Assembly: GCA_946408825.1 (NCBI GenBank)
Contig: CAMJTU010000017.1
Location: 1,143-65,142, forward strand
Reading direction: 5' to 3'
Source of the DNA: an uncultured Planctomycetaceae bacterium
GTDB lineage: Bacteria; Planctomycetota; Planctomycetia; Pirellulales; Thermoguttaceae
DNA: 64,000 nt
Below, piece after piece: positions 15,987-59,431 of the stretch. Every line of letters begins with the position of its first letter. The first letter of the stretch is position 1. The notes below the pieces were generated by a model. The model saw only the letters and a list, made by a program, of their open reading frames with translations, ran no database searches and was not told the origin of the DNA. The translations under genes were made by a program, and so were the position numbers.

Positions 15987-17084
15987 ATGTCGGAAATCTT
16001 TTCACAGACGATCATCGTCGGCGTAGGTCTTTTGGGCGGATCGCTGGGACTTGCCGCAAAGAAATTTGGCGTTGGCGGCAAGATTATCGGTCTTGGTCGT
16101 AACGTTGCAAAATTAAAGCGCGCTTTGGAACTTGAAGCAGTTGACTCGTGGGCGACCTCATGGCGCGACGCAATTTCTTCTATTGAGCCGGATTTGGAAA
16201 CCGCGCCCATACAGATTGTCTTAGCCGCTCCAGTGGAAGTGAATATAAAGCTTTTAAGCGAGTTATGGGCGTTACGTTACGAGCCTTGGTTTGCCGGTAG
16301 ACGTTATGTTATATCTGACGTGGGAAGCGTTAAAGGGGAATTTGCAGAGTTCGCAGCCAAATTATCTCATTCGACAAATCAACCAAAGGATGCGTCGATT
16401 TCCTTTGTGCCGGCTCACCCAATTGCGGGAAGCGACAGATCAGGCGTTGAGAACGCAAGCGCCACGCTCTTTTATGGCAAACTCACGATTTTAACTCCAT
16501 GGTCAAAATCAAGCGAACGTAGCGTCGATCTTGCTCGTGGGTATGCGGCGCCGTTTGAACGAGCGGACGACGTTAAGGACGATTCAAGTTTTGACGCGAT
16601 TCGTAGAAAATATGCCCTCGTTTTCGGCGAGAGTGAGAGATTGGACGAAACGGAACCGTCGTTGTCGACCAAAATTTCCGCTTGTGTCGGCGGTCCAATG
16701 AGCGAGGACGTTTCTCGGGTTCGTGAGTTTTGGCGCGCTTTAGGATGTTGTGTCGTTGAGACTTCGGCGGAAGAACATGATCAGATTCTTGCGCGTACAA
16801 GTCATCTCCCCAACCTCGTTTCGACGTTGACAACGAGCTCCGTCCCTCTGAACGAATTCCTATTCACGGGAACCGGTTTTCGTGACGTAACTCGTCTTGC
16901 CGGCGGTAATCCCGAGGTCTGGACCGAAATTTACATGACTAATCGCGTCGCCGTCTTAGAAGCTTTACAACGCTTAGAGGAGAAGATCCTCTGTTGGAAA
17001 GCCTTTTTGACAGAAGGCGATCGAGAATCCATCTTAACCTTTTTGAATGAAACAAAGAAGAAACGAGATGCTTTGGGAAGTTGA
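15987..17084 (+). CDS. tyrA: Prephenate/arogenate dehydrogenase
   Basis: NAD fold IIVGVGLLGGSLG, then PAHPIAGS and HDQILARTSHLPNLVS. I prefer ATG 15987 over the track's GTG at 15945. Confidence 0.8.
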   Translation: MSEIFSQTIIVGVGLLGGSLGLAAKKFGVGGKIIGLGRNVAKLKRALELEAVDSWATSWRDAISSIEPDLETAPIQIVLAAPVEVNIKLLSELWALRYEPWFAGRRYVISDVGSVKGEFAEFAAKLSHSTNQPKDASISFVPAHPIAGSDRSGVENASATLFYGKLTILTPWSKSSERSVDLARGYAAPFERADDVKDDSSFDAIRRKYALVFGESERLDETEPSLSTKISACVGGPMSEDVSRVREFWRALGCCVVETSAEEHDQILARTSHLPNLVSTLTTSSVPLNEFLFTGTGFRDVTRLAGGNPEVWTEIYMTNRVAVLEALQRLEEKILCWKAFLTEGDRESILTFLNETKKKRDALGS

Positions 17085-20000
17085 TATTTTTGCCGCGCCG
17101 GGTTTGCCTGACGTCATTGGCATAGAAACGTCAGCCGACGCCGCTGATTTGGGGTTTTCGCCTTCACTCAAGATTGGGGGCGCGCGTGGATATCTCATTC
17201 AGGGCGATTTAACCCGTGACCAAGTCGAGGCGCTTGTGTCGAAACTCTTGGCGGATTCTGTCGTCGAGAGGGCTACAATAGGAGTCGTTGGCGCTCCTGA
17301 ATTGGAGGTCTCGCTTACGGGAGCGGAAGGAAAGGTTGTTTATGTTCTTCCTAAACCCGGCGTTACCGACGTTGTCGCCGACGCGGCGCGTAAATCTGCC
17401 GCCGACTATGGTATTTTTCCTGACGCCGTTCGCACATTTAAGAAATATTGGATTGGAGGCGTTGACGATCAAGAGATCAAAAAGCTCTCGCGGAAGGCGC
17501 TCGCTAACGACGCAATCGAGCAGGTCGCTTATGACAAGCTTGGATTTGATTCATTGCAAATCGGTTCGCCGTATGAATTTAAACTTACTGTAGTTTCGAT
17601 TCGTACGATGGACGACGTTGCGCTCATGAAACTCAGCAGAGAAGGACAACTCTACCTTTCTCTTGCTGAAATGCAGACGATTAAGGCATATTTTTGTGGG
17701 TTAGATCGCGATCCGACAGACGTTGAACTTGAAACGATCGCCCAAACCTGGAGCGAACATTGTAGCCATAAGACCCTTGCGGGACGTATCGATTACGAAG
17801 GTCCCGAGGGAAAGCTTCATTTTGAAAATATGCTCAAGGAAACGATTTTCGCCTCGACGGTGAAGATTCGTGAAATGCTAGGAGACGACGATTTTTGCGT
17901 CAGCGTTTTTTCTGACAACGCCGGCGTTGTGAAATTCGACGACAAGTATAACGTGTGCTTTAAAGTTGAAACTCACAATCATCCGAGCGCGCTTGAACCT
18001 TACGGCGGCGCCAACACCGGCATAGGCGGCGTTATTCGCGATCCAATGGGCACAGGGATGGGGGCAAAGCCCGTTTGCAATACCGACGTTTTTTGTTTCG
18101 CGCCGCCACAACTCTCGTCCGACGAAGTTCCGAACGGCGTGTTACATCCACGTCGTGTGATTAAGGGCGTCGTCGCTGGCGTTCGCGATTATGGAAACCG
18201 TATGGGAATTCCTACCGTGAACGGCGCGGTCTACTTTGATAAACGTTACCTTGGCAATCCCCTCGTGTATTGCGGGGACGTCGGACTCATTCCTGTCGAT
18301 AAGTCCTTTAAGCGTCCTCAACCAAACGATCTGATCGTTGCGATGGGCGGGCGAACAGGTCGTGACGGCGTTCACGGCGCAACCTTTAGTAGCGCTGAAC
18401 TTACGAGCGAGAGCGAGACTATTTCTGGAGGCGCTGTTCAAATAGGCAACGCGATCGTCGAAAAGACGGTTCTCGACGTCATGCTCGAGGCGCGCGATCG
18501 CGGTCTTTATAACGCCGTAACAGATTGCGGCGCGGGCGGCTTTTCCAGCGCTGTCGGCGAGATGGGCGAGGAAATTGGCGCTGAAGTCAACCTTGATGCA
18601 GTACTCCTAAAGTATGAGGGACTTTCATACACTGAAATTTGGATTAGCGAAGCTCAAGAACGTATGGTTTTCGCCGTTCCCAAAGACAAGTGGTCAGAAT
18701 TTAAAGCGCTTGCCGACAGTGAAGACGTTGAAACGTTTGTATTTGGCGAGTTTAAACCAACTGGTCGACTTGTCTTGCAGTATGACGGTTGTACAGTCGC
18801 CGATCTCGACATGAAGTTCATGCACAAAGGGCGTCCCAACGTCGTGCGTCAGGCTGTTTATGAATCTCCCGTCGTCGCGCCGATTTCAGTTAAACCTACA
18901 GACGCCGAACTTTGGGCGCAGACTGTCGTTTCTAAATCGTTGGCGTCATGTCCCTCCTGCAAGGGCGATAAAACGGATGCGACGCTCGATCTTGAGGCAA
19001 TCCTTTCTTGTTTGAACGTAGCAAGTAAGCACTGGGTCGTACGTCAGTATGATCACGAGGTCCAAGGTGGAAGCGTTCTGAAGCCTCTTGTTGGCGTAGC
19101 AAACGACGGACCAGGCGACGCGGCTGTTCTACGCCCCAGAATTGAGACTCGCCGCGGTCTTGTAATTTCCAACGGAATGAATCCCAATTATGGAGATTAC
19201 GATACTTATGCTATGGCTGCCAGCGCTATTGACGAAGCGATTCGTAACGCTGTCGCTGTCGGCGCAAATCCTGCTACGATTACGTTGCTTGACAATTTCT
19301 GTTGGGGCGCCGGCGATAAGCCCGAGGTCCTCGGCTCGCTTGTTCATTCCGCATTGGCATGTTACGATGTTTCTATCGCGATGGGAACGCCGTTCATTAG
19401 CGGAAAAGATTCGCTTAATAACGAGTTTAGACCAGAAGGTAAAGAGCCGATCGCAATTCCTCCTTCTTTGCTTATCAGCGCAATGGGACAGGTTGACGAC
19501 GTTGAAACGTGCGTGTCCATGGATTTAAAGAAGGCAGGAAACGCGCTGTATCTTGTTGGCGTTACGAAAAACGAACTTGGCGGTTCACACCTTTCGCTGG
19601 TTCGCGATTGGATTGGCGGACAAGCGCCGACGCTCGACGTTAAACTTGCAAAGCGCCTATATAACGCGCTTTATCGTGCGACTCAGGCTCGATTGATTTG
19701 TTCGATGCACGATTTAAGCGAGGGCGGACTTGCCGTGGCAATTGCAGAAAGCGCGTTTTCTGGCGCGCTGGGCGCGGAGATATCGCTGGCTTCAATTCCG
19801 TCGGCAAAGTCGAACGTGGCCATGTTGAACTTTTTGCCCGGGATAGACGACGATCAAGTCGACGATTACGTCAAACTCTTCTCAGAATCAAACGCGCGTC
19901 TTTTGGTTGAGATTGCCGCAGATTGTTGCGAACCATTTGAAGAGATTCTTGGGGAAGCGAACGCGCCTTTTGCTCGTATCGGTGAAGTTGTCGCTGAGCC

Positions 20001-20112
20001 ACGGCTGAAGATTTTTGCAGGCAATCAATCTGTTATTGTCGACGCGGATATTTTCGACCTAAAACATCAATGGCAGAAGCCGTTTGATCTCGGCGGGGAA
20101 TACGTAGACTGA
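17068..20112 (+). CDS. purL: Phosphoribosylformylglycinamidine synthase PurL with tandem PurS-like N-terminal domains
   Basis: The conserved WSEHCSHKT lies about 228 aa from the start. Upstream are two PurS-like modules ending LLADSVVE and LANDAIEQV. Two AIRS-type repeats follow. The ATG at 17068 overlaps the tyrA end by 17 nt. Confidence 0.9.
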   Translation: MLWEVDIFAAPGLPDVIGIETSADAADLGFSPSLKIGGARGYLIQGDLTRDQVEALVSKLLADSVVERATIGVVGAPELEVSLTGAEGKVVYVLPKPGVTDVVADAARKSAADYGIFPDAVRTFKKYWIGGVDDQEIKKLSRKALANDAIEQVAYDKLGFDSLQIGSPYEFKLTVVSIRTMDDVALMKLSREGQLYLSLAEMQTIKAYFCGLDRDPTDVELETIAQTWSEHCSHKTLAGRIDYEGPEGKLHFENMLKETIFASTVKIREMLGDDDFCVSVFSDNAGVVKFDDKYNVCFKVETHNHPSALEPYGGANTGIGGVIRDPMGTGMGAKPVCNTDVFCFAPPQLSSDEVPNGVLHPRRVIKGVVAGVRDYGNRMGIPTVNGAVYFDKRYLGNPLVYCGDVGLIPVDKSFKRPQPNDLIVAMGGRTGRDGVHGATFSSAELTSESETISGGAVQIGNAIVEKTVLDVMLEARDRGLYNAVTDCGAGGFSSAVGEMGEEIGAEVNLDAVLLKYEGLSYTEIWISEAQERMVFAVPKDKWSEFKALADSEDVETFVFGEFKPTGRLVLQYDGCTVADLDMKFMHKGRPNVVRQAVYESPVVAPISVKPTDAELWAQTVVSKSLASCPSCKGDKTDATLDLEAILSCLNVASKHWVVRQYDHEVQGGSVLKPLVGVANDGPGDAAVLRPRIETRRGLVISNGMNPNYGDYDTYAMAASAIDEAIRNAVAVGANPATITLLDNFCWGAGDKPEVLGSLVHSALACYDVSIAMGTPFISGKDSLNNEFRPEGKEPIAIPPSLLISAMGQVDDVETCVSMDLKKAGNALYLVGVTKNELGGSHLSLVRDWIGGQAPTLDVKLAKRLYNALYRATQARLICSMHDLSEGGLAVAIAESAFSGALGAEISLASIPSAKSNVAMLNFLPGIDDDQVDDYVKLFSESNARLLVEIAADCCEPFEEILGEANAPFARIGEVVAEPRLKIFAGNQSVIVDADIFDLKHQWQKPFDLGGEYVD

Positions 20113-40552: not shown

Positions 40553-42589
40553 TTAGCGAGATCGTTGTTTTGCGATAGACATTGCGGTTTTTTGCGGATC
40601 ACGGGCAATTTTTGAGAGTTTGCGATTTCGAGCGAGAAGAGTCGTCGTCCATCGACTAAATAGTTCGGATACTTCTACTTTAAAATTGTCGCTCAAAGTT
40701 GAAACGCCTCCAAAACGCGTCATTTCCAATTTCTTGAAAAATTCCTTCAGTTTGGCGATCGTTTCGTCTGATTTCGAATTATTTCCAATGTCTTCACCGA
40801 ATTCGACGTCAAGAAAGTCAAGAATTTCAGCGTCCGTATAGGAGTCTAAAGAATGTGGAAGTCTTTTGCCAACAAGTTGTAAGAACGCGAGTCTAATTAA
40901 AGAAAAGCCCTCCGATGGATTCTGATCTAGGTTGGTCAACCCCAATTCAAGCGTTTTTCTCGCAGATTCAAGGATACGGCGATTGCTTGAAATAACGCTT
41001 TGTTTATGAGCGTGCAATACTTTACGCCCTATAAAAAAGAACGTCGCGCCACCCGCCGCAACTGCAAAAGAACAACCGAGAATAATTGCGACGAATTTGA
41101 AGCGTTCTTGTTGACGTCTATAAGATTTTTCTAGATTGCGGTCACTGGATTCATCTGTTTGATCGGCGACTATTGATTCTTGTGAATCGTCGAACGTCGA
41201 CACTATTCCAGCCTTAGCGACGAATCGACTTGTCGCCGATTCCATCGTCTCAAATTTTCCAGATTCGACATTAAAAAACGAAGTCTTAATCGAAGGGAAC
41301 TCAAAAAGACCCTCTTTGAGAGGTCGGAGTTTATAATCAAACGCAACGCCAGAGTTGATTGAACGTTCTGAGGCCGGATAGACGCGAAAGACGTCTTTGA
41401 TTCCGTCAAGTTTCGAGATATCAGGCGCTTTTGCGGACGTAAAGGAACCATATCCGACATACTCGAGCGTAAGCGTGAGCGCGTCGCCCACCGACGCTTC
41501 GTTAGCTGAAAGCGAAGCTTTTTGCTCTATATTGCCGTATATGCCCGTATAGTTTTCTGGGGCGTTTTCTTCGGGTATGTCCTTGATCTTTATGGAGAGG
41601 GGAGGAGTGGAGAGGAACACAGGTAGAGACTTAGGAGAGGAAGGATCTGTAAAATCTAAAAAATTTCCCTTTAGCGTCGAAGGGGCAAACGAGAAAGATG
41701 AAGAAGTCGTCGCCCTCATTTTACGAGAAAAAGAATACTTCAAGAATACCGTTTCTCTTCCTTTAGCGTCGGGTCGCGTAACTTTCTGAGGTTTGGGGAG
41801 AAAGTAACTTTGACGGACAGGTTCGTCAAAAAAGGAGAATCCGAAATCAAAAATTCCATTAGAACGTCGGTAGTTATTGAGCGCAAAACCATAATTTTTT
41901 GCGGAAAGCTCCGTCAACCAATCGTCTAAAGAATCTGCAACGAGTTTGTCTTCGAAATTTTGAGACTCAAGCCAAGGAATTGACAAAAGAGGGGCGTCAA
42001 GGTTATGAACGACAAGGGATAAGGGGTCGTGTTCCGCGTATTCTGACGGATATTCTTTAAGGTAAACATTGACGGAGACTTCAAAGGGAACGAGGGGGTA
42101 GGTTGTTTCCTTTGCATCCGTTTCGACCTCGAGAATCACTATGTCAGTTTTTGTCTTTTCACGTACGACGAGATTTATTGAGGACGCTTGAAGTTTCTTT
42201 CCATCGACTTCAACGATCGGGGGATTGATAGTTATTACGCCCGTTTGTTTTGGCGTGATACGATAATTGAAGTCTACCGTACGGTTTTCAGTGCGAATTG
42301 AGTTTATAACTCTGACGCTGGATCGGTTTGAAGCGCCGAGCGATTCAATAGTAAAATCGTTTTCTAGGTATTCTAACGACGGCTCGGCGTCGAGTTTGGC
42401 GTTTGTTACTGAAATGGTCAGTCTTGCTGATTCGCCCTCATAGACGGCGTTAGGGGCGACATGGAGTTCAAACCTCGCTTCATCTTCTTCTGCATACAAC
42501 AACCGTTCGACGTCCAATGAGAAGAACGTTAAGGAGACGATGAAAAACGCAAAGGACGTTAAACGACTAGATTTTTTAGTTAATAGCAT
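40553..42589 (-). CDS. batD: BatD-like protein
   Basis: 678 aa. It has a signal peptide, repeated beta-sandwich-like segments (ELHVAPNAVYEGESARLTISV), a late TM segment and a helical C-terminus. It is the last gene of the MoxR-vWA operon. Confidence 0.65.
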   Translation of the reverse strand: MLLTKKSSRLTSFAFFIVSLTFFSLDVERLLYAEEDEARFELHVAPNAVYEGESARLTISVTNAKLDAEPSLEYLENDFTIESLGASNRSSVRVINSIRTENRTVDFNYRITPKQTGVITINPPIVEVDGKKLQASSINLVVREKTKTDIVILEVETDAKETTYPLVPFEVSVNVYLKEYPSEYAEHDPLSLVVHNLDAPLLSIPWLESQNFEDKLVADSLDDWLTELSAKNYGFALNNYRRSNGIFDFGFSFFDEPVRQSYFLPKPQKVTRPDAKGRETVFLKYSFSRKMRATTSSSFSFAPSTLKGNFLDFTDPSSPKSLPVFLSTPPLSIKIKDIPEENAPENYTGIYGNIEQKASLSANEASVGDALTLTLEYVGYGSFTSAKAPDISKLDGIKDVFRVYPASERSINSGVAFDYKLRPLKEGLFEFPSIKTSFFNVESGKFETMESATSRFVAKAGIVSTFDDSQESIVADQTDESSDRNLEKSYRRQQERFKFVAIILGCSFAVAAGGATFFFIGRKVLHAHKQSVISSNRRILESARKTLELGLTNLDQNPSEGFSLIRLAFLQLVGKRLPHSLDSYTDAEILDFLDVEFGEDIGNNSKSDETIAKLKEFFKKLEMTRFGGVSTLSDNFKVEVSELFSRWTTTLLARNRKLSKIARDPQKTAMSIAKQRSR

Positions 42590-42684
42590 TGTCGTCGTTC
42601 CTTTTAGAGACCCTTTTATTATTTGGGATAGCTTATGACTGCGAGGCGGTCGTCGGCGAAGGACGCCTTTTGGAGGGGAGAATT

Positions 42685-45600
42685 TTACCAGTCCTTACCA
42701 GATTTTTCTCTCCTTTTCAGAGCCTGTCGAACGGCTTCACGTTGGGGTTCAGCGTCTTTTTGACGGCGGAGAACTCGTCGCATGAGCTCGTCGGCTTGTT
42801 TTTGTTCTTCCGTTTTTGGTTCTTCGCTTGCTTTCATTTTTTTCTGTTCTGATTCTTCCGTATCAGGAGCGACGTCCTTTTGGGGGACGTCTAACGCTTT
42901 GGAGGAGTTGGAGTCGTTTTCTTCTTTTTCGGATTCTGGTTGATCTAGTTCGTCAGGGATTTCTTCATTTTCGGTTTGTTGACGGTTGTTTTTTTGATCT
43001 TTCTGACCATCGCTTTCGTCCTTTTGATCCTTATTGTCTAAATTTTGGTCGCCGTTAGATTGGTTTTGTTGATTCTGATTCTGATTCTGATTCTGTTTGT
43101 TCTCATCTTGGAAGGGTTTTGCAATATCTTTTAGGATTTCGGCAATCCTGTTTTGTTTTTGTGCCAAATCTTTTTTGTCCTGTTCTTGTAACGGATAAGA
43201 TTGAGCAAGGGAACCCGCCTTTTCAATGGTTTCTTTTAGTTCTTGCTCGTGAACGAGCGCTATCTTTGCGGACTCTAACGCGCGGTTTTCGTAGGAACGT
43301 TCGCTTGTATCCGCTGATTCTGGTAAATCGTTAGAATCGAAGATCGGTTCTCCTGAATTGGCGTCAAACGAATCGTTCCATTCAATAGATTCAGAAATAG
43401 ACGCTTTCTGTTGCGAGTCTTGTCCTTCCTCTGAGGCTTCTTTGACGATTTGTCTCGCTTTTCTCATCGTTTCATCAACAGATAGACGAAGTTTCTCTCG
43501 ACTCCAACGGTAATCGTCAACCTGATCAGGGTTAGACGTCTTGAAATTGCCCTCTTTGATATCTTGGGAAATCTTTGATTCGTTTTGAGATAGTTCGACG
43601 ACAAGAACGTCATATTGCGACGGCACGTCATGGAAGGTCGTAAGCTGTGTCTCGGCGCGTCTGAGTTCTATTCGCGCAGCATTGGCTTCATATTGATCTA
43701 TTTTTTCTGACGAGGCCAAGATATGAGCGTCAAACCTATTTAGGGCTTGAGCTATTATTTCAGCGCCTTCTGCGTCATTTGTTTGGGGAGTAATTGCATT
43801 GTGCGAAGGAGTTGTGTTCACGTCTGGGAGAGGGAATTTAGAGACGTCGGAGTTAACTAGACGTGAACGAAGTTTTGTTGCGATTGAATTGGCGTCTTCT
43901 TTAAGTTCGCCGATCTTTATACGTTTATTAGCGAGCGATCGGTAAAAACTTGCGGAAGGTCTTTTCGGGTTTGCGTCTTGGATAGAACCTATTGTTTCGT
44001 TGAGTTCTTTTTGGAGCCAGCGTAAATGGTCCGAAGAATTTTGAAACACATTTGAGCGGATTTTGATTTCATCTTCGCGCTCCTGATGGTCAAAGTTCGC
44101 GCGCCAATTTGACACAACCTCTGCATTTTCCGTCGACTCTTGTCCGAGCGTTCGATTGGTTCGAGCGTCTAAAAACTTAACCGAAGCGTCGTTTGCTAAG
44201 GTTATTATTTCTTCGCGTATACGATCACGTTCTTTACGCGCGGCGTCGTATTCCGCAACAGGATCTATTTGTTTTTTTTCTGCGATTTCTTGTGATTGAG
44301 AATTTTCCACTTCCTTTTCTTGGGACGCCTTCTTGTCTTGGGGACTATGATCGGCGTCGTTTGCTCGCGATTTAGCCGCTTCGAGCGCTTTATGCAATTC
44401 AACCACTGCAAGGTTATAGCTTGCACGGCTCGCAACTTCTGGGTTATCCGCGTGAGTTAGAGCATTTTGCAGTTCGGCGAATCTCTCGACGTTGTCGTTT
44501 GCGATCGTCAACGATTGATTATAGGCTCTGATTTCTTGATTTTTGCTCCTATGCTTTGATGTGAACCTGATCTCATTGTCGTTGTCATCCGGAGTGGTCG
44601 CGTATGTCGTAGTCGACGCCAACGACATGCAAATTGATATAAGAATCAACGTCGCAATTGTTTGGGGAATTTTCAGAGACAATCGTGTCGGGCAGAAATA
44701 GTAGAGCATGAACGTAAAAAGACCGACTGCAAGGAAGGATTGATAACGGTCTTTCAAGAAGACGCGCGACGTGTCAGAGATTTCATCGCGATCTTGAATC
44801 TGGACGCTGGCTTTGTAGACGTCGGTAAAGTTGAGTTTAGAGTCCGCATAAAAGTAACGTCCTTTTGAAATTTTGGCGATCTCTTTAAGAGTGTCGACGT
44901 CCGTCTTACTTATAGCTGTCTGACCGTCAAACGTTTTAAAACCTGTTCGTTCGCCGTTGACGTTGAAATTAGGGATTTTCGCGCCGTTCGGAGAACCGAT
45001 TCCAACAGTGACGATGGGGATTCCCATTTCAGCCGCGTTTTTTGCCGCTTCAAGGGGGAGTGAATCGTGGTCTTCGCCGTCTGTTATGAGAAAGATAAGC
45101 CGTTTACGTTCTGGTTCTTGCCCAAAACGTTTTAACGCGAGACGAATTGCGTCGCCTGTCGCCGTGCCGGCCAACCGAACTGTTTTGGTATCGACCTTTC
45201 GCAAGAGCTCACGAAAGAACTCATAATCAGTCGTCAACGGAATCTCGACCTGTGCGGAACCCGCAAACGCAACGAGACCGATTCTATCGCCAACGGCCGC
45301 GTCAAGTAAATCTTCAACGTCTAGTCGCGCGACGGTCAAGCGATTGGGGGAGACGTCTTCCGCAAGCATCGAATCGGAAACGTCGAAAAGGACGAAAACG
45401 TCGCGTCCCAAAACCTTGCGCATTTCTTCCTTCTTGCCGAAACGAGGTCCTGCAAAAACGCAAACAAAAGCGACGAGCGCCAATAAAAGGAATATATACT
45501 TTACGACCAGAATAGAGCGTGATCCAGATCCTAAAATCCGAACGCGCAAATCTTCTGCGAAGGCAGCTTCTATTTTACGACGTCGTCTTATCATTGAACG

Positions 45601-45687
45601 TGCGACAATATAGAACAGCGGAGGAAACGCAAGAAGGGTTAGAAAAACGGCGGGGTGATTCCAAATCATTACTTTAACCTCTGTCAC
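42685..45687 (-). CDS. BatB-like vWA membrane protein fused to a TPR-like/coiled-coil and low-complexity region
   Basis: 1000 aa. The N-terminal TM segments are followed by the MIDAS motif VLFDVSDSM and ITDGEDHD. Next come a TM segment, a TPR-like stretch (YNQSLTIANDN...SYNLAVVELHKALE), a long charged helical region and a QNQNQNQN/D/K-rich tail. Confidence 0.7.
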   Translation of the reverse strand: MTEVKVMIWNHPAVFLTLLAFPPLFYIVARSMIRRRRKIEAAFAEDLRVRILGSGSRSILVVKYIFLLLALVAFVCVFAGPRFGKKEEMRKVLGRDVFVLFDVSDSMLAEDVSPNRLTVARLDVEDLLDAAVGDRIGLVAFAGSAQVEIPLTTDYEFFRELLRKVDTKTVRLAGTATGDAIRLALKRFGQEPERKRLIFLITDGEDHDSLPLEAAKNAAEMGIPIVTVGIGSPNGAKIPNFNVNGERTGFKTFDGQTAISKTDVDTLKEIAKISKGRYFYADSKLNFTDVYKASVQIQDRDEISDTSRVFLKDRYQSFLAVGLFTFMLYYFCPTRLSLKIPQTIATLILISICMSLASTTTYATTPDDNDNEIRFTSKHRSKNQEIRAYNQSLTIANDNVERFAELQNALTHADNPEVASRASYNLAVVELHKALEAAKSRANDADHSPQDKKASQEKEVENSQSQEIAEKKQIDPVAEYDAARKERDRIREEIITLANDASVKFLDARTNRTLGQESTENAEVVSNWRANFDHQEREDEIKIRSNVFQNSSDHLRWLQKELNETIGSIQDANPKRPSASFYRSLANKRIKIGELKEDANSIATKLRSRLVNSDVSKFPLPDVNTTPSHNAITPQTNDAEGAEIIAQALNRFDAHILASSEKIDQYEANAARIELRRAETQLTTFHDVPSQYDVLVVELSQNESKISQDIKEGNFKTSNPDQVDDYRWSREKLRLSVDETMRKARQIVKEASEEGQDSQQKASISESIEWNDSFDANSGEPIFDSNDLPESADTSERSYENRALESAKIALVHEQELKETIEKAGSLAQSYPLQEQDKKDLAQKQNRIAEILKDIAKPFQDENKQNQNQNQNQQNQSNGDQNLDNKDQKDESDGQKDQKNNRQQTENEEIPDELDQPESEKEENDSNSSKALDVPQKDVAPDTEESEQKKMKASEEPKTEEQKQADELMRRVLRRQKDAEPQREAVRQALKRREKSGKDW
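43071..43094 (-). repeat. Hexanucleotide microsatellite (GATTCT)x4 inside the BatB-like CDS
   Basis: gattct is repeated four times in tandem and encodes (QN)n on the minus strand. Confidence 0.9.
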
Positions 45688-45735
45688 AAAACGAATTTAT
45701 TTTCTGAAATAGGAAGCGTTTGACCGAGGTTTACG

Positions 45736-46812
45736 CTACGGAAAGGTACGAAATCTTGTTGTCGTGAGGATCGCGTTTGTCACGAGAAATAGAATTCCCA
45801 ATGTCGCAAAAGGAGGATATATGTCTCGATACTCGGCGAAAGATCCAGCGTCAAATTTTGTTCGTTCAAGGGCGTCGATTTCTTCATAAACTTCTTTGAG
45901 TTTTTCGAGATCGCTGGCATAAAAGTAACGACCCCCTGTCGCATCGGCAATCATATGAAGAGTTTCGGGGTTAAAATCAAGCTCTTGTAGCGTCATAATA
46001 TGTTCGCCAGAAGGAAGATAACTCGGGAATGGAACAGGACCAGAGCTCCCAACTCCGATCGTATATACTTTGACGCCATAGGCTTGTGCTATCCTTACGC
46101 CTTCTTCAGGCGAAAGTTCTCCTGCTGTTTGCATACCGTCGGAAAGAAGTACGACGATTTTAGTTTTGGCAGGCGAATCCTTAACTCGATCAACAGCGGT
46201 TGCTAAAGCGTCGCCGATAGCGGTTCCTGATTCTTCGTCTAGGGTTTGCGTCCGAATCATAACGCCTCGACTATCGAAGAGCGGGACTGGCGTTTCAATT
46301 GTGTTTAGGAGTTCGATGAGCGACGCATGGTCGAGCGTTAATGGACAACAGGAATCGACGAACCCTCCAAACGCAATTAATCCGACGAGGTCGTTTGTCC
46401 TGCCTCGAAAATCTTTTGAACCTTCGATAAAATCCCGGAAAACTTTTTTGACAGCCATCAGACGAGTTACCGGTCTCCCGTCGAGTTCAAAATCTTCAGC
46501 TGCCATTGAGCCGCTACGGTCTACGCACATGACGATTGAGACCCCGTCGCCGACGATTCGCGAACGTTGAATACCATACTGCGGTCGTGCTAACGCGACG
46601 ACGACAAACGCCGCGCCGCAATAGACGAGGCATGGAAGAAATCGTTTGAATCTTGAAGCTAAACTCGCTGGAATTTCGTCTAGTCCAATCGTCGTAGAAA
46701 AGAGAACGGTCGCCTTGTTTCTACGAGTAAACGTCGAGTCAAGAATCGCCAAGATAAATAGCGGCACGAGCAGAATCAGCCAGTACGGCGAGGCAAATTG
46801 GAAAGAGTTCAT
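45736..46812 (-). CDS. batA: BatA-like vWA membrane protein
   Basis: 358 aa. The N-terminus is FQFASPYWLILLVPLFILAIL, the MIDAS motif is VMCVDRSGSM, LLSDGMQT follows, and there is a C-terminal TM segment. Confidence 0.8.
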   Translation of the reverse strand: MNSFQFASPYWLILLVPLFILAILDSTFTRRNKATVLFSTTIGLDEIPASLASRFKRFLPCLVYCGAAFVVVALARPQYGIQRSRIVGDGVSIVMCVDRSGSMAAEDFELDGRPVTRLMAVKKVFRDFIEGSKDFRGRTNDLVGLIAFGGFVDSCCPLTLDHASLIELLNTIETPVPLFDSRGVMIRTQTLDEESGTAIGDALATAVDRVKDSPAKTKIVVLLSDGMQTAGELSPEEGVRIAQAYGVKVYTIGVGSSGPVPFPSYLPSGEHIMTLQELDFNPETLHMIADATGGRYFYASDLEKLKEVYEEIDALERTKFDAGSFAEYRDIYPPFATLGILFLVTNAILTTTRFRTFP

Positions 46813-46860
46813 TTGAGTTCGACCTCGGAAGGCAAACGGGCGCGACGCGGCAGTGAATCG

Positions 46861-48150
46861 CTACCTTGCTGACAACTCGGAATCTACGACGGAATTAGGC
46901 CGGCCGTCTTTTGACATGTTCTCACTGTTCGCTATTTCTTGACGTAATTCGTCAAGACGTTTTACATAGGATGAAGAAGAACGCTCGACAATGTTATAAA
47001 CCATTTCGAAAATCTTAGTTGCGTCATTAAACGACGTGTCGCGCTTCGCAAATTTTATGAGGTCCAAATCTGTTAGGGCCGCCTCAATTTGCGAACTAAT
47101 GTCAGGCTCTTTAAGCGTAGCTACGGCTATCGCAACGTTCTGCGCCTCAAAAGTTTTTCCTGTACGCATGTCGCTGTTTATAGTCACGTCTTTTGGGGGA
47201 GTTGAGATAGGCCCTTCAAGAAACTCCAATATCTCATGCGTCGTCATTTCTTGTGCGTTCAATGGAAAGAGGGCCGCGAGATACTCGCGTAGTATCTCGT
47301 CTATTTCGTAGTAAAGACGTCGATCGTTCTCGAGGTAGGCTTGAGATTTTTTTAGCGCGTCGAGTTTTTGTTTCGCTCTTTCATAGGGAGATACTATTTG
47401 TAATTCTCTAGGTTTGATTTCGACTTTCTTCTTCGACAGGAGAAAATATAACGTTAGGACAAAAGCTATAATTAGAATCGCCACGACGACCAGTACGAGC
47501 ATTGGAGTTTTCCGGATTGGGGTCAAGTTAACTGCAATTTCATCGACTGATTTTAGAGACGTGTTAGACCCAGGAATTGTAAACTTTTGTTCGGGAATAA
47601 TCGCGACGACAGACTCTGTTTCAGACGAGTTAGACGATTTGACAGAAGAGAGCGCGATCGGAATGGGGGGAAGGACGAGTTCGCCGTGTCGAGTTGGATA
47701 GAGTCGCCAACGTCGCAACGTTGTGTTTGATTTTTCGTCGACGTCACGGGTTTCATCCCCCAAGAATTCGACGTTGAAATCGCCATAGATTCCTGCGAGA
47801 TCGTCTTCGTCAACAACGACGCCTTGAGGCTTTAGAAACTTGACAGAGAGATTAATTGGCTCGAAAGACGCCGTTTGCTCGGGAGAAACGCTTTTCTCAA
47901 CTTGAATTAATCCTAGCGACGATTCAATCGTCTGAACTGTTTCGAAGGTTTGCGATTCGTTGCCGTTTACGGTTGGAATCGACTTGTTAAACAGAGTTAT
48001 AACAATGAAAATCGCCGAGAGAACCACTACGATGTAGACGGCGTGATAAGGTCGTTGCGCTGAGTCTGAACAGAAGGAAATCCGGCGTGACATGGATGAT
48101 TTTGAGATTGAATTGATGGAGCAGGATTTAAACAATAAACGGTCACGCAA
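46861..48150 (-). CDS. Membrane protein with a BatD-like N-terminal half and a DUF4381-like C-terminal half
   Basis: 429 aa with two TM segments. After the second TM, SPYERAKQKLDALKK...YYEIDEILREYLAALF...TTHEILEFL fits the DUF4381 pattern found between DUF58 and BatA. The TTG start abuts the DUF58 stop, and ATG 48093 is an alternative. Confidence 0.5.
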   Translation of the reverse strand: MRDRLLFKSCSINSISKSSMSRRISFCSDSAQRPYHAVYIVVVLSAIFIVITLFNKSIPTVNGNESQTFETVQTIESSLGLIQVEKSVSPEQTASFEPINLSVKFLKPQGVVVDEDDLAGIYGDFNVEFLGDETRDVDEKSNTTLRRWRLYPTRHGELVLPPIPIALSSVKSSNSSETESVVAIIPEQKFTIPGSNTSLKSVDEIAVNLTPIRKTPMLVLVVVAILIIAFVLTLYFLLSKKKVEIKPRELQIVSPYERAKQKLDALKKSQAYLENDRRLYYEIDEILREYLAALFPLNAQEMTTHEILEFLEGPISTPPKDVTINSDMRTGKTFEAQNVAIAVATLKEPDISSQIEAALTDLDLIKFAKRDTSFNDATKIFEMVYNIVERSSSSYVKRLDELRQEIANSENMSKDGRPNSVVDSELSAR

Positions 48151-49113
48151 TTATCGCCGCCGTCGATTTCCGAAAAACGTCCTTAGTGATCGCACGTAAT
48201 CGCCGCCGTTTTCAATGGCGACTAGATCGACGCACGCTTCTTTGAGATTTACCTCAACTTTTTCCCGTTGACGTTTCAATTTTTCCGAGATTGATTGACG
48301 AATTCGTTTGGAGCCCGCGTCTAACTCGATTGTCGCGCCAGTTTCTGGATTGCGAAGCGTAACAAACCCGAGGTTTGGGAAAGCGTTTTCTAGCGGTTCT
48401 GTAATAGAAAGCGCAATGACGTCGTGTCTACGTTTACAACGCGCGAGCGTTTCAGAGAAACTAGGAACGTAAAAATCGCTGATAATGAAAATAACGGCAC
48501 GGCGTTTCAACGTCTTGTTTATATATTCTAACGTCGAATTGAGATCCGTTATTTCTTTTCTCGGCGTCGCCAGGAGCATTTCTCGGACGAGCTTTAAAAC
48601 GTAATTGCGTCCCTTACGAGGGGGAAAGTAGTCGTGTACGCCGTTTGCGAAAGTCGCGAGTCCGATTTTGTCGTTATTTTTAAGCGCCGAAAACATTAGG
48701 CAAGCGGCGACTTCTGTCGCCGTTTCAAGACGAGAAGCTTTAGAACCAAACAGGTTAGAAGCGGAAACGTCCAGTAAGAAGAGTACGGAACGCTCCCGTT
48801 CTTCCGAAAAACGTTTGACATACGGTTTATTCGACCGCGCCGTGACATTCCAGTCAATCATACGAACGTCGTCGCCTTCAGCGTATTCTCGTACTTCGTC
48901 GAATTCGACCCCTTGACCTCGAAACGCGCTACGATATTGTCCGCTAAAGACGTCGTCGGCAATATGGTTAGAGATAATATCTATACGTTTGATCCTACGA
49001 AGTATCGACTCAATCTTGTTTTTTTCCGTTTCGTCAACGGCTAACTTTATATGTCGATTTCGTCGATTTACGATTGCGGTTAGGAAACAGTCGCCCTTTT
49101 TTTCAGTCGTCAT
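48151..49113 (-). CDS. DUF58-domain protein (MoxR partner)
   Basis: 320 aa with FRGQGVEFDEVREYAEGDDVRMIDWNVTARSNKPYVKRFSEERE, the DUF58 signature. Confidence 0.85.
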   Translation of the reverse strand: MTTEKKGDCFLTAIVNRRNRHIKLAVDETEKNKIESILRRIKRIDIISNHIADDVFSGQYRSAFRGQGVEFDEVREYAEGDDVRMIDWNVTARSNKPYVKRFSEERERSVLFLLDVSASNLFGSKASRLETATEVAACLMFSALKNNDKIGLATFANGVHDYFPPRKGRNYVLKLVREMLLATPRKEITDLNSTLEYINKTLKRRAVIFIISDFYVPSFSETLARCKRRHDVIALSITEPLENAFPNLGFVTLRNPETGATIELDAGSKRIRQSISEKLKRQREKVEVNLKEACVDLVAIENGGDYVRSLRTFFGNRRRR

Positions 49114-49161: not shown

Positions 49162-50151
49162 TTATGGAACGGGTACCACGTCGAGAATTCTGGAAATGAC
49201 GTCTTCGGCGGTAATATCGTCAGCTTCCGCCTCATAGGTCAATACGATTCTATGACGCAACGCGTCATAGGCGAGATCTTTGACGTCTTGTGGGGTGACA
49301 TATCCACGACCGGCGAGTAGCGCGAGCGCTTTAGCTCCTTTACCCAAGCATAGCGAAGCGCGTGGCGACGCGCCGAATTCTATTGCGCGTTTTAATTCTG
49401 CAAGTCCATGAATTTCTGGGTTTCGCGTTGTTCTTACTACGTCGACAATATAGTCGCGGACACTGGGGTCAAGATAGATTTTTTCGACGTCTTCTTGTAT
49501 TTCGACAATGTCGCTCGCTTTGAGAACGGGACGGGGCGTGTCGGCAAAGTTCTTCATACCTCGATCAAAGACGATTTTTTCTTCATCAAGCGACGGATAA
49601 TCGATCTTAACCTTAAGCATAAAACGGTCGATCTGCGCTTCAGGGAGAGGGTAGACGCCTTCTTGTTCGATAGGGTTTTGGGTCGCTAAAACCAGAAAAG
49701 GCGCGTCAAGCGACCAAGTCCTTTCGCCAATTGTAACCTGCCGTTCCTGCATCGCTTCTAAGAGCGCAGATTGGACTTTAGACGGCGCGCGGTTGATTTC
49801 GTCAGCGAGTACGAAATTAGCGAAGATTGGACCTTTACGCGTTTGGAACGTTCCTTGAGACGGAACGTAGATCATCGTTCCTATCAAATCTGCCGGTAGA
49901 ACGTCCGGAGTGAATTGGATTCGTTGAAATCGCGCGTCAAGCGCGACGGCTAAAGAACGAATTGCCGTTGTCTTCGCGAGTCCTGGAACCCCCTCAAGGA
50001 GAACATGACCTCCGGTAAGGACGCCGACGAGGAGTCGCGAAATCATTTTCTCTTGACCTACGACGACGCGGCCAATTTCTGAACGGAGACGATCGATCTG
50101 CTCTTTGCGTTTGCTGACGACGTCTGCTGACAATAGCGATTCTTGCGACAT
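49162..50151 (-). CDS. moxR: MoxR-family AAA+ ATPase
   Basis: 329 aa with Walker A LLEGVPGLAKT and Walker B FVLADEINRAPSKVQSALLEAMQE. Confidence 0.9.
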   Translation of the reverse strand: MSQESLLSADVVSKRKEQIDRLRSEIGRVVVGQEKMISRLLVGVLTGGHVLLEGVPGLAKTTAIRSLAVALDARFQRIQFTPDVLPADLIGTMIYVPSQGTFQTRKGPIFANFVLADEINRAPSKVQSALLEAMQERQVTIGERTWSLDAPFLVLATQNPIEQEGVYPLPEAQIDRFMLKVKIDYPSLDEEKIVFDRGMKNFADTPRPVLKASDIVEIQEDVEKIYLDPSVRDYIVDVVRTTRNPEIHGLAELKRAIEFGASPRASLCLGKGAKALALLAGRGYVTPQDVKDLAYDALRHRIVLTYEAEADDITAEDVISRILDVVPVP

Positions 50152-50346
50152 GGTTTAACCTACCGTTATATTTATGATTTAAATTAAATGGATTGAATGG
50201 CGAAGGTCGTGTGTTACGTTCTTTCTCCGAAAGAGTTGCCTCTCGCGGGGAAATCTTTTTTAGAAAAGGATAAATTACTCCTAAAACGGCGCTTCGAAGA
50301 AACGAATTCTTTACGAGATATGAACGTGAACGAATGTCGGCAGAAG

Positions 50347-50913
50347 CTAAGATTGCTCATCGACGAAACAATTGGGGGCGCCGCGATTTTGCAAGCAGAT
50401 ATCCAACTCGTCAAGTCTACAAATCCATCCTCGACAGAGAGGCGAACCGCATTTACAGGGGATTGCAAATTGCCAACTCCAGCCATAGTCGATTGTGAGT
50501 TCTTCACCTTTCTGAACGTCACGCAAGGCGTGGAGCCATAGTTCAAAGGTTTTCTGTGATTTTGGCGCTTCGCCTAAGACAGACTCGAACTGATCTTCGA
50601 TCTCCCATTCAATAAACTCACAGTTCGGATCGCAACTGTGATTCAGGAATCGATACGGTTCGTTCGGTTCGAGAACGGCTCCCGCAAATTCTACGCAGTA
50701 ACAAGACCTGAAATCAACGGGTTTTAGGTCGCCAAGAACGCGTCCAACGGCACGTCCACGTTTAACAGGCGCGTCTGCGAAAACGCCAAGCCCTCGCCCC
50801 TCTGTTTCTGCTACATGAACACGGTTAAAACGCACATGCCGTGAAGAGAAGGGTGGAATTGGATCGATGCGGCGGGGGCGCTTTTGCGGGACGTCTGTGT
50901 CATTTGTCGTCAT
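50347..50913 (-). CDS. SET-domain protein methyltransferase
   Basis: ATG 50913 gives 188 aa with GRGLGVFA, RFLNHSCDPNCEF, GEELTIDYG and CKCGSPLCRGW. The upstream part of the track ORF overlaps the regulator gene. Confidence 0.85.
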   Translation of the reverse strand: MTTNDTDVPQKRPRRIDPIPPFSSRHVRFNRVHVAETEGRGLGVFADAPVKRGRAVGRVLGDLKPVDFRSCYCVEFAGAVLEPNEPYRFLNHSCDPNCEFIEWEIEDQFESVLGEAPKSQKTFELWLHALRDVQKGEELTIDYGWSWQFAIPCKCGSPLCRGWICRLDELDICLQNRGAPNCFVDEQS

Positions 50914-52441
50914 GTTGGACGCCCTGTTCGTTTTCCTGTGAGAATTCTTTGAGACGACGGTAAAGGGTTCTCTCGCCGACGCCCAACATTTTTGCTGTTT
51001 CTTCTCGATTTCCACCGGTAGAACGGAGCGTTTCCTGTATAAAAAGGCGCGTCAGAGTTTCGAGGGTAAGACCGACGAACGGCTTTAGCGATTTTTCTTT
51101 ATCGGGCGAAGGACTGAAAATCACGCCCTTGGGATTCCCTTTTTTGAAGTCGCCGTTTTCGGAAGTGGTTTTGTCGTCTAAGTCTTCGTCTTTGGACTGA
51201 TTGGAGTCTGGATAATTATCGGAAGGGGTGGCTGAGAGGATGTACTCGGGGAGATCGTCTTCATCGATTAAGCCGTCAATATCGACGACAACCATGCTTT
51301 CTACGGCGTTACGTAACTGGCGGACGTTTCCTGGCCAGTCGTACATGAGAAGACGGCGTCTGACGGAAGCGGAAAAACCTCGTATTTCTTTATCATACCT
51401 CTTCATGAATATTTTGACGAAGTGGTCGATAAGGATAGGGATATCTTCATTACGTTCCTTAAGACTTGGCAAGCGCAATGTCACTACGTTGATTCGATGG
51501 TACAGATCGAGACGGAACTCGCCGTTCTTAACCGCTTCTTCTAAATTTCGGTTTGTTGCCGAAACAAGACGAACATTGACTTTAATTGCTTTGTTAGAGC
51601 CAACGGGCGTGATTTCGCCGCTTTCAAGAACTCGAAGCAACTTGACCTGTGTTGCAATGGGCATGTCGCCGACTTCATCGAGAAAGAGAGTTCCTCCATT
51701 GGCATACTCAAATTTCCCGACATGGTCTCCAGACGCGTCGGTAAACGCGCCTTTAACATGGCCAAATAACTCGCTTTCTAAAAGGTTTTCGCTTAAAGCG
51801 GCGCAGTTTAACGCCACAAAAGGCTTGTTTTTGCGAGGACTATTATGATGTAACGCCTGAGCAAAAAGTTCTTTACCCGTTCCTGTATCGCCTAGGATGA
51901 GCACTGTCGCATCGGTGGGGGCGATTCGTTTAAGCCGCTCGATTGCATTGAGCATGACGGGACTACTTCCGACGACTCCGTCAAACCCAAATTTTTCATC
52001 AAGACGAGCTTTGAGTTGGAGATTGTCGCGTCGTAATCGCGCGGAATCGCCAGCCTTTTGAACTATTGATCGTAGTTGTTTCAGATCGAGTGGTTTTTGA
52101 AGATAGTTAAACGCGCCTTGAAGCATTGCCTCGACGGCAGTTTCAACACCGTTAAAGGCAGTCATGAGAACGACTTCTGTATCGGGCGTTTCCTGTTTGA
52201 CCGCTTTGAGTAAATCCAATCCGCCTTCGTTGGTTTCGAGCATCAGATCCGTGACAACGACGTCGAAAGACTGGCGCTTTATAATTTCTTTAGCTTCCTT
52301 TTCGGAGTGCGCGATAACGCATTGGGCGTTAACTCGCTCTAAACTCGCGGCGACAACCTCGGCATGCGCTGGTTCGTCGTCGACAACGAGAACGTTCAAG
52401 GGTTCATCCGACGCTGTACTATCTTCTTTTGACTTGGCCAA
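50900..52441 (-). CDS. Sigma-54-dependent response regulator (NtrC family: REC-AAA+-Fis HTH)
   Basis: 513 aa. The REC domain has VLVVDDE and VVVTDLML. The AAA+ domain has Walker A GDTGTGKE and the GAFTGA-type loop GAFTDA. The C-terminal HTH is AKMLGVGERTLYRRLKEF. Confidence 0.9.
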   Translation of the reverse strand: MAKSKEDSTASDEPLNVLVVDDEPAHAEVVAASLERVNAQCVIAHSEKEAKEIIKRQSFDVVVTDLMLETNEGGLDLLKAVKQETPDTEVVLMTAFNGVETAVEAMLQGAFNYLQKPLDLKQLRSIVQKAGDSARLRRDNLQLKARLDEKFGFDGVVGSSPVMLNAIERLKRIAPTDATVLILGDTGTGKELFAQALHHNSPRKNKPFVALNCAALSENLLESELFGHVKGAFTDASGDHVGKFEYANGGTLFLDEVGDMPIATQVKLLRVLESGEITPVGSNKAIKVNVRLVSATNRNLEEAVKNGEFRLDLYHRINVVTLRLPSLKERNEDIPILIDHFVKIFMKRYDKEIRGFSASVRRRLLMYDWPGNVRQLRNAVESMVVVDIDGLIDEDDLPEYILSATPSDNYPDSNQSKDEDLDDKTTSENGDFKKGNPKGVIFSPSPDKEKSLKPFVGLTLETLTRLFIQETLRSTGGNREETAKMLGVGERTLYRRLKEFSQENEQGVQHDDK

Positions 52442-52725
52442 GACCGCCTCCTGATTCTCTAACTTACCGCGATAACGCCCTTCATTTTACGTTTCTGAGC
52501 GTCGCCTACGTTGCAGCTATTATTGTATCGTTTTTTTTTTTTGCGTCTAACCCCGAAAAGACGACGTCCCCGTTATGATCTGCATAAACGATGGATAGTC
52601 TCGCGAATTATGGAAAATCAAGATGAGTTGACCCAATGAGATAAAGCGCTAAAATCGAGAGGAGCGTCGGCGTCGGCGCGCTTTGTCGTTTTAAACCCAG
52701 GAGGTGGCTCTTTTCCACGTTTACG

Positions 52726-54162
52726 ATGTTAGTCGTATTTATCGTAAGTTTTTCCGTCGCGCTAGTCGTTTCTGCGATGTGTTCGATCGCCGAATCTGTT
52801 CTTATGAGTCTTTCGACTGCGGAACTAGTCGAGATTTCAAGGAAAAACGCTGGAATAGGTAAAATTTGGGAGGATTTTAAGAGCGACGTAAACGCGCCGA
52901 TTACGGCGATTCTTACGCTCAACACAGCCGCTCATACTATAGGAGCCTCTTTCGCTGGCGCGTCGTTTGCACAACTTACAGGCGACAAGTGGATAGGAGC
53001 GTTCTCAGTTGTCTTTACCTTCTTAATGCTCCAGTTCACTGAGATTCTTCCTAAAACTCTTGGGGTTCGTTTCAGACGTAGTCTTGCCCACGTTATCGCC
53101 TACCCGTTGTATTGGATAACCTATCTTTCTCAACCGCTTTTCTACCTCTTTCGGATTCTGAATCTCCCCTTCGAGTCTAAGATTGAAAAGAGCGCGTCTT
53201 CTTCGTTAGGCGCAGTTCAAGAAATCATGTTGCTCACTTCCCTCGCCAGAAGTCGTTCCCAGTTAGACACCGAACAGGAAAAGATTATTCTAGCGACGTT
53301 AAAATTATCTCAAACGAAGGCGGAAGACGTCATGGTTCCTATCTCAGACGTTTCTATGCTTTCTGAAAGCATGTCCATCTCTGATGCGTTGGAAGTTGGC
53401 AAAAATGATTCTCACACTCGTTTTCCTGTCTACTATAAAGACGATCCAACAATCATTATTGGTTACGTGAATATCAAAGAACTGATAGGACGAGAGATAT
53501 GGTCGACGTCTGAAGACGGCAGGAACGTTCGTGGCAGCGGTGGATTAGCGAGTTGTTTGCGTAAGATTATTCGGGTGGAACCGACTGCTAAAACGTCTGA
53601 CGTACTCAACATTCTTGTAAAACAGCACGAACATATTGCCGTAGTTGTTAGTTCGGTCGAGCAGAAGAACTTAGGAATTCTTACGTTAGAGGATTTGGTC
53701 GAAGAACTCGTCGGCGAAATTGAGGACGAATTTGATCGTCTCCCAGAAACTACTCATCTTTCGCAAAGTTATGTTCGCGTTGGCGGCGGCGCGCCCGTGT
53801 CGTCAGTCATGCAGAGTGTTGCCAAAGTTTTTCCAAGAGAGTCGCAGGAACTGCTTAAAGAACTTTCAAAGACAGACGTTAATCAACGTTTTACAAGGTG
53901 GTTTGAGACTGTTCATCCTTCAGGCGTTGCAAGAAATGATCGGCTTGACTTTGGCGAACTTGCCGTCTGGGTGCGACGTGCTCGCCGCGATCAAGTTTTT
54001 GACGCGCAAATCCAGAGGGCAGTTTCAGTTGCCCCTCGCATTAGCGTTTTTCCTGCTGAAAGCGTTGCCGATAAAGTCTCTGTATCCTCTGAACATGGCT
54101 TGGCAACGATCCCCGATTCGGATTCGCGTCCGACTGAAAGCGACTCTGCCGTTGGATTCTAA
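52726..54162 (+). CDS. CNNM/CorB-HlyC family transporter (DUF21-CBS pair-CorC_HlyC-like)
   Basis: 478 aa. The N-terminal 4 TM segments carry SIAESVLMSL, CBS-like segments include DVMVPISDVSML, and the C-terminal domain is transporter-associated-like. Confidence 0.8.
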   Translation: MLVVFIVSFSVALVVSAMCSIAESVLMSLSTAELVEISRKNAGIGKIWEDFKSDVNAPITAILTLNTAAHTIGASFAGASFAQLTGDKWIGAFSVVFTFLMLQFTEILPKTLGVRFRRSLAHVIAYPLYWITYLSQPLFYLFRILNLPFESKIEKSASSSLGAVQEIMLLTSLARSRSQLDTEQEKIILATLKLSQTKAEDVMVPISDVSMLSESMSISDALEVGKNDSHTRFPVYYKDDPTIIIGYVNIKELIGREIWSTSEDGRNVRGSGGLASCLRKIIRVEPTAKTSDVLNILVKQHEHIAVVVSSVEQKNLGILTLEDLVEELVGEIEDEFDRLPETTHLSQSYVRVGGGAPVSSVMQSVAKVFPRESQELLKELSKTDVNQRFTRWFETVHPSGVARNDRLDFGELAVWVRRARRDQVFDAQIQRAVSVAPRISVFPAESVADKVSVSSEHGLATIPDSDSRPTESDSAVGF

Positions 54163-59412: not shown

Positions 59413-59431
59413 ACGAGGGAGGGAATGCGAA

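Follow-up and report, generated by a model that had tools for sequence, protein, structure and literature searches.

Genes for SET-domain proteins had been recognised in more than 500 bacterial genomes by 2014, free-living bacteria such as the planctomycete Gemmata included (PMC3980110). The characterised prokaryotic SET proteins comprise effectors of chlamydiae, Legionella, Burkholderia and Bacillus, together with cpnSET of Chlamydophila pneumoniae, which acts on Hc1, and Go1-SET of Methanosarcina mazei, which acts on MC1-alpha (PMC3980110). BurB of Burkholderia thailandensis methylates a small molecule, free methionine, and not a protein (PMC12542666). The subject here is a SET gene within a stretch of 64,000 nt (the window) from an uncultured Planctomycetaceae bacterium (GenBank assembly GCA_946408825.1, contig CAMJTU010000017.1, positions 1,143 to 65,142 of the forward strand), where it overlaps the end of a gene for an NtrC-family response regulator, a sigma-54-type enhancer-binding protein (EBP), and precedes a MoxR/Bat-like operon. 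An earlier, sequence-only reading of this DNA had taken bacterial SET proteins to be few and either host-directed or chlamydial, a view outdated by the number of genomes (PMC3980110) and by BurB (PMC12542666). It had also known of no described EBP-SET pairing, and in the literature library searched here no publication combined a SET domain, sigma-54 and an enhancer-binding protein.

Each part of the locus has a known counterpart. The regulator has the architecture of the NtrC/ZraR-family EBPs (REC, AAA+ with sigma-54 interaction, HTH_8), with the phospho-acceptor Asp context and Walker A motif, but its contact loop reads GAFTDA, neither a cognate kinase nor a -24/-12 promoter lies nearby, and a methyltransferase gene overlaps its 3' end. 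The SET protein resembles cpnSET and Go1-SET in being small, single-domain and prokaryotic, with intact S-adenosylmethionine (SAM)-binding and catalytic motifs and a presumed endogenous protein target (PMC3980110). It differs from them in its full post-SET CxCx4C zinc motif and its clade-specific acidic insert, and an overlap with a sigma-54-type regulator gene is undescribed for those enzymes. The downstream genes belong to the same families, in the same order, as the MoxR-DUF58-BatA-BatB-BatD operons named Bat (Bacteroides aerotolerance), but only in the clade described below do a SET gene and a sigma-54-type regulator precede such an operon.

The regulator-SET pair is real: neither gene is damaged, and purifying selection acts on both. 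Their products add members to known families, and the pairing, though restricted to one clade, is undescribed. It is probably a lineage-specific two-gene unit formed by operon accretion, in which a housekeeping-type planctomycete SET gene was captured behind an orphan NtrC-family regulator. The sequence-only reading had proposed a stoichiometrically co-produced signalling and protein-methylation module, with the activator itself, sigma-54, nucleoid proteins or the MoxR-vWA machinery as possible targets. In a dedicated module of this kind the SET protein would methylate the regulator, sigma-54 or a nucleoid protein at the target promoters and so tune their output. Such a module is unlikely, and accretion is preferred to it, because the arrangement has a single origin, the SET gene stands alone elsewhere, a sister regulator lacks it and the synteny ties it equally to MoxR.

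The block regulator-SET-MoxR-DUF58-x-vWA-vWA is found in ten Thermoguttaceae lineages, the window and nine others (L001-L005, L085-L089 and L091, with L001-3 counted together), and the gene order of the Bat operon is the same in all ten loci. Across the linked lineages SET identity ranges from 53 to 98%. Identity to the SET protein of the window is 77% for L004, 65% for L001-3 (a 3.2-Mb Thermoguttaceae assembly), 63% for L085, 59% for L005 and L088, 55% for L087 and 53% for L086; L089 and L091 were found via their regulators, which are 74% and 67% identical to that of the window. The SET ATG is inside the last codons of the regulator gene in every case. Adjacency and overlap are thus kept well beyond this genome, although they are confined to one Thermoguttaceae subclade. 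The upstream flank has been replaced in L085 (GH43) and in L087 (HAD hydrolase), with the three-part block intact in both. One of the contigs, L005 (CAVGEG010000036.1, 6461-8534), bears the name of Paratractidigestivibacter sp., which belongs to the Actinobacteria, but its CNNM/regulator/SET/MoxR/Bat synteny is that of Thermoguttaceae in full, at 57-78% protein identity, and it is probably mis-binned.

A single origin is indicated because the linked loci fall into one clade whether the tree is built from SET or from regulator sequences. The ten linked SET proteins group together in a neighbour-joining tree, with L065 and L006 as sisters, and 91 of 100 bootstraps recover the linked regulators as monophyletic. 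These trees imply one gain of the arrangement, or else one loss from the sister lineage, with vertical inheritance thereafter. The sister regulators L090 (6001-7623) and L093 (6001-7572) keep the FliR-HtrA-TauE-CNNM flank and have neither SET nor MoxR-Bat genes downstream, while the more distant regulators L092 and L094 are in unrelated contexts. In place of SET and MoxR there is a FAD-oxidase/Fe-S gene in both L090 and L093, accompanied in L093 by a Ser/Thr kinase gene. Among the best 80 of at least 524 SET loci, surveyed below, the adjacency did not recur in phylogenetically independent lineages. Both the single origin of the pairing and the sister regulators without a SET gene speak against a dedicated module. 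Within the clade the SET gene is tied to the MoxR operon exactly as consistently as to the regulator, and synteny therefore gives no reason to prefer the regulator as its partner.

The wider SET family was surveyed with a SET alignment in one genome per GTDB species, which yielded at least 524 relatives, and the best 80 loci were inspected. Almost all of these 80 are from Planctomycetota (Thermoguttaceae, Pirellulales, Planctomycetaceae, Kuenenia), with a few otherwise-labelled bins. When searched by tblastn with the proteins of the window, five of the 80 had an adjacent regulator and MoxR/Bat genes, all of them clade members; none of the other 75 (within the best 80 of at least 524) had an adjacent regulator, which again counts against a module, and in two of the 75 an EBP-like gene is ~6 kb from SET. 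Clustering of the flanking open reading frames (ORFs) of the best 80 loci gave no recurrent SET neighbour outside the clade that might hint at a substrate. This clustering relied on crude gene calling, which left SET itself unrecovered in 26 high-GC loci; the tblastn check covers all loci. The nearest unlinked SET genes are that of L065, between a glycosyltransferase, a xylose-isomerase-like gene and EF-G, and that of L006, between a Na/Pi cotransporter and an M20 peptidase. As judged from these loci, the SET gene belongs to a large and otherwise stand-alone planctomycete SET family without a conserved neighbour.

The SET ORF runs from ATG 50913-50911 to TAG 50349-50347. Its product matches Pfam PF00856 at 8.4e-15 (55.5 bits against a cut-off of 22.4) and contains GRGLGVFA, RFLNHSCDPNCEF, GEELTIDYG and CKCGSPLCRGW, so the complete SET signature previously read by eye in a 188-aa product is borne out. 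A disordered N-terminus (aa 1-30) is followed by the SET core (aa 31-145), which contains an acidic insert (about aa 106-120), and then by the post-SET CxCx4C (aa 153-160) and a C-terminal helix. In an alignment of 31 SET homologues G41, G43, Y72, N91 and H92 are invariant or at least 90% conserved, and C94, the ELxxDY tyrosine Y143 and the post-SET cysteines C153, C155 and C160 are invariant. G41 and G43 (at least 90% conserved) form the SAM-binding GxG, N91-H92-S93-C94 is the NHxC motif, and its C94 completes the post-SET zinc cluster with C153, C155 and C160. Neither the SAM-binding residues nor the catalytic tyrosine are missing, a lack that would have spoken against the sequence-only reading. 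The AlphaFold2 model built on the same 31-homologue alignment has a pLDDT of 85.1 and a pTM of 0.78, with a core above 90 and low confidence in the first 30 residues and the acidic insert. Between clade members the SET gene has a dN/dS of 0.07-0.13, with synonymous sites saturated. From its conserved residues and predicted fold, the enzyme appears active, as a dedicated module would also have it.

A longer SET ORF, from GTG 51015 and of 222 aa, was rejected, as the N-termini of homologues align to ATG 50913. The linked-clade proteins have two peculiarities: they share an N-terminal P-I-P-P-F motif (aa 1-30, ~50824-50913, minus strand), and in most of them the acidic insert, which separates two SET strands (aa 106-120, ~50554-50598, minus strand), is longer than in other planctomycete homologues.

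The nearest relatives of known structure are eukaryotic. The best sequence matches in the Protein Data Bank (PDB) are the SET and post-SET domains of ASH1L (3e-11), NSD1/2, SETD2 and MLL, and Foldseek searches with the model returned the SET domains of ASH1L, MLL1/3 and NSD (E ~1e-9, TM ~0.55-0.65). The NHSCDPNC, ELTxDY and CxCGxxxCRG motifs are near-identical to those of ASH1L/NSD/SETD2/MLL, and GEELTIDYG, with Y143, aligns to GTELTYDYN of ASH1L. Unlike these enzymes, the bacterial protein lacks AWS/pre-SET and chromatin-reader domains, is only 188 aa in total and has no histone targets. BurB, a stand-alone bacterial SET enzyme of similar size (172 aa) that S-methylates methionine (PMC12542666), is also among the PDB sequence matches (E = 2.3e-8), so that the SET protein might be a small-molecule methyltransferase and not a protein-lysine methyltransferase. 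This is very unlikely, since the lysine methyltransferases ASH1L, NSD and MLL match better and the protein has the complete post-SET zinc motif and the ELxxDY tyrosine. Furthermore, BurB is encoded in a biosynthetic cluster with burI, burD and burE, whereas none of these or any other biosynthetic gene is near the SET gene of the window, whose neighbours are the regulator, MoxR/Bat and CNNM.

A secreted, host-directed effector of a gut-associated planctomycete, comparable with chlamydial NUE or Legionella RomA, can hardly be expected here. Animal guts are indeed the source of several SET relatives, one of them from a goat-ileum genome bin, and most of the bacterial SET proteins that have been characterised are effectors (PMC3980110). 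Members of the same family are, however, found in lake, groundwater, marine and anammox Planctomycetota, and neither a secretion signal nor an ankyrin or nuclear-localisation-type domain can be recognised in the SET protein. Planctomycetes, moreover, are not known as intracellular pathogens.

The regulator is made up of Response_reg at aa 17-127 (1.1e-22), Sigma54_activat at aa 157-322 (PF00158; 6e-72, 241 bits), AAA_lid_14 at aa 328-409 (3.6e-25) and HTH_8 at aa 468-500 (PF02954; 1.9e-11), the last preceded by an acidic, low-complexity linker. The profile searches thereby confirm both domains named from the letters, SET and Sigma54_activat, and translation of the ORF confirms the REC-AAA+-Fis regulator with VVVTDLML (the phospho-acceptor Asp context, PF00072) and Walker A GDTGTGKE, to which Walker B LFLDEVGD can be added. 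The putative sigma-54 contact loop is indeed GAFTDA and not GAFTGA. As GAFTDA is present in 105 of the 120 best-matching homologues, it is, by this comparison, a clade-typical loop variant of the regulator family. The TTG start of the gene is well supported because GGAGG-N5-TTG is conserved in the alignment of orthologous loci. Automated gene calls in several public contigs picked other regulator starts (492-543 aa).

The two genes meet as originally described, the SET ATG (50913-50911) lying inside the last codons of the regulator gene, which ends at TGA 50902-50900, with an overlap of 14 nt (ATGACGACAAATGA); the geometry is the same in the nine other lineages. The overlaps of the ten lineages measure 11, 11, 14, 14, 14, 20, 20, 23, 26 and 77 nt, all 2 mod 3, the longest being that of L005, in which the regulator TGA is mutated to CGA. 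Since the shared codons specify nothing but the C-terminal tail of the regulator and the N-terminus of the SET protein, both of them variable, the overlap costs little. The geometry is that of a coupled pair, with the start codon within the upstream gene, both genes on the same strand and no intervening signals; a terminator scan and an Rfam search found no terminator or known RNA element within the pair. Regulator and SET are probably co-transcribed as an operon, and they are possibly coupled in translation as well. A sigma-70-like match upstream of the regulator is the candidate promoter of this transcript, and the consensus scan gave a second such match inside the SET 3' end (50414-50386). 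Overlapping ORFs are ordinary within the window, for example 15945..17084 with 17047..20112, and the genes at 48151 and 48150 abut.

If the pair arose by accretion, expression would proceed as follows. One transcript would start upstream of the regulator, which would be translated from the conserved GGAGG-N5-TTG start. The embedded SET ATG would then be used by ribosomes that reach the end of the regulator or that load at a weak AGG-type site in its last codons, and SET output would follow the low level at which the regulator gene is expressed. The SET protein would be a protein-lysine methyltransferase acting on an endogenous target common to Planctomycetota and not specific to the regulator. 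An overlap, once formed in dispensable tails, would be hard to undo.

Some observations weigh against accretion. The overlap has outlasted a divergence that saturates synonymous sites as well as the two rearrangements of the upstream flank (L085, L087), and no breakpoint between regulator and SET is present in any of the ten lineages. Such persistence would fit selection for co-expression and, with it, a functional link. The family survey, moreover, covered the best 80 of at least 524 SET loci, and an independent regulator-SET pairing elsewhere could have escaped it. The proposal of a dedicated module draws on the same features, namely that the overlap is kept in one frame offset through ten lineages and that regulator and SET are never separated despite the flank rearrangements; the regulator's acidic, poorly conserved linker also contains lysine and is a possible substrate. 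The overlapped codons being the non-conserved tails of both proteins argues the other way. It is distinctly unlikely that the SET protein methylates a lysine of the co-encoded EBP, or sigma-54 or RNA polymerase at the promoters that the EBP controls.

Such promoters were sought at the locus itself. With up to two mismatches to TGGCAC-N5-TTGC, 35 sites occur in the window against 38.6 expected, and none is located before a gene of the block. A sigma-54 promoter before MoxR, SET, regulator or CNNM was consequently rejected, there being no enrichment in the window, and the scan bears out for the regulator-SET-MoxR block the earlier remark that no gene is preceded by a spacing-correct -24/-12 element. 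Nor did the 11 orthologous loci (~150 kb) contain any site in which GG and GC were exact and 8 or more of the 11 positions matched, which is a further argument against a module. Since a sigma-54 regulon with canonical promoters has been predicted computationally for Planctomycetia (PMC12316311) and none is found at the locus, the regulator's target promoters are probably elsewhere in the genome.

Downstream, the question is whether SET belongs with the MoxR-Bat operon, as a leader gene whose product methylates MoxR, the DUF58 or vWA proteins or a client, with the regulator merely upstream. SET and the MoxR operon occur jointly in the ten linked lineages, and L090 and L093 lack both. No minus-strand terminator-like site was detected by the scan criteria in the gap between them, in line with the sequence-only reading, which had seen no obvious one. 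SET is, however, separated from MoxR in every lineage by a gap of ~150-250 nt with a conserved motif and variable hairpins, in contrast to its overlap with the regulator, and the unlinked sister SET genes L006 and L065 are not beside MoxR. MoxR-Bat operons are also widespread without SET. Membership of SET in the MoxR-Bat operon is, on balance, improbable.

The conserved motif is bipartite. AAG-N14-GG(C/T)AAC, with a fixed spacing of 14 nt, is present in the SET-MoxR gaps of eight of the ten lineages, with GGTAAC in L086 and L088; at the aligned position L004 has TAG-N14-GGCAAC, and L089 is without the motif. It is located at 8661 in L001, 8625 in L005, 6649 in L085, 828 in L086, 6589 in L087, 5907 in L088 and 8186 in L091, and AAG-N14-GGCAAC occurs once in the 64-kb window. 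The motif is a candidate operator of the MoxR operon, or a candidate promoter that an alternative sigma factor may recognise, and its conservation suggests that this operon has a control element of its own. Under accretion the MoxR-Bat operon would probably be controlled separately through AAG-N14-GGCAAC, with read-through possible. The GGCAAC block was also considered as a -24 or -12 element and rejected, as only one locus has the partner dinucleotide at the spacing that such an element requires. A loose likeness to the sigma-28-type TAAAGTTT-N11-GCCGATAA is not claimed.

The two intergenic regions gave no Rfam match at E up to 1, and the RNA of the SET-MoxR gap folds slightly better than its shuffles, at an unremarkable z = -2.4. 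Just upstream of the conserved motif is a weak AU-rich hairpin (AGGAG...UCCUU) with a short U-run (50262-50282, minus strand). It falls below the criteria of the terminator scan and lies in a region similar only to that of L004; possibly it acts as a leaky terminator in the SET-MoxR gap.

Table 1. Positions of the regulator-SET-MoxR block, its putative signals and its neighbours within the window
Feature	Position	Strand	Basis
NtrC-family response regulator/enhancer-binding protein, 513 aa	50900..52441	minus	ORF and Pfam
SET + post-SET methyltransferase, 188 aa	50347..50913	minus	Pfam, PDB sequence matches, alignment, AlphaFold2, Foldseek, dN/dS
Regulator/SET overlap, 14 nt	50900..50913	minus	Sequence
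Shine-Dalgarno GGAGG, then regulator TTG start (GGAGGcggtcTTG)	52439..52451	minus	Sequence and orthologue alignment
Sigma-70-like -35/-10 match TAGACG-16-TACAAT, ~80 nt upstream of regulator start	52522..52549	minus	Consensus match only
SET-MoxR intergenic region, 195 nt	50152..50346	minus	Between SET stop and MoxR ATG at 50151
Bipartite motif AAG-N14-GGCAAC, 84 nt upstream of MoxR ATG	50235..50257	minus	Alignment of ten gaps
MoxR-type AAA+ ATPase (AAA_3, AAA_lid_2), gene 1 of Bat-like operon	49162..50151	minus	Pfam
Remainder of Bat-like operon, downstream of MoxR	40553..49113	minus	Pfam
DUF58/vWA	48151-49113	minus	Pfam
Membrane protein, weak below-cut-off DUF4381 match	46861-48150	minus	Pfam
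BatA-vWA	45736-46812	minus	Pfam
vWA protein, 1000 aa	42685-45687	minus	Pfam
BatD	40553-42589	minus	Pfam
CNNM/CBS transporter-like gene, divergent from regulator	52726..54162	plus	Pfam

The upstream flank of the regulator consists of the divergent CNNM/CBS protein, a small ORF, an HtrA-like protease, FliR and RsmH. A Pfam scan of the large ORFs between 36 and 64 kb found no histidine kinase domain, and the earlier statements that no such kinase is adjacent and that the MoxR operon begins 195 bp downstream both hold. Directly after rsmH (58501-59412), and overlapping its end, is an ORF of 1353 aa (59333-63394, plus strand) whose only matches, to apolipoprotein-like helical repeats, are below threshold. 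For this slot, which is normally held by genes of the division/cell-wall cluster, it is unusually large.

Bacterial SET proteins outside pathogens have almost no assigned function, and a clade in which a SET gene is locked by an overlap to a transcriptional activator offers a concrete and cheap test of their substrates. Were lysine methylation of the EBP or sigma-54 to prove true, it would be a new layer of control on the bacterial two-component/sigma-54 switch, and a prokaryotic circuit of 'transcription-factor methylation' would have become fixed in a single clade of planctomycetes. If, as is likelier, the regulator, RpoN and the Bat proteins are not substrates of the SET protein, the locus would be an entry to the endogenous substrate of a SET family found in hundreds of Planctomycetota, and a clear case of a conserved overlap that reflects shared ancestry and not shared function.

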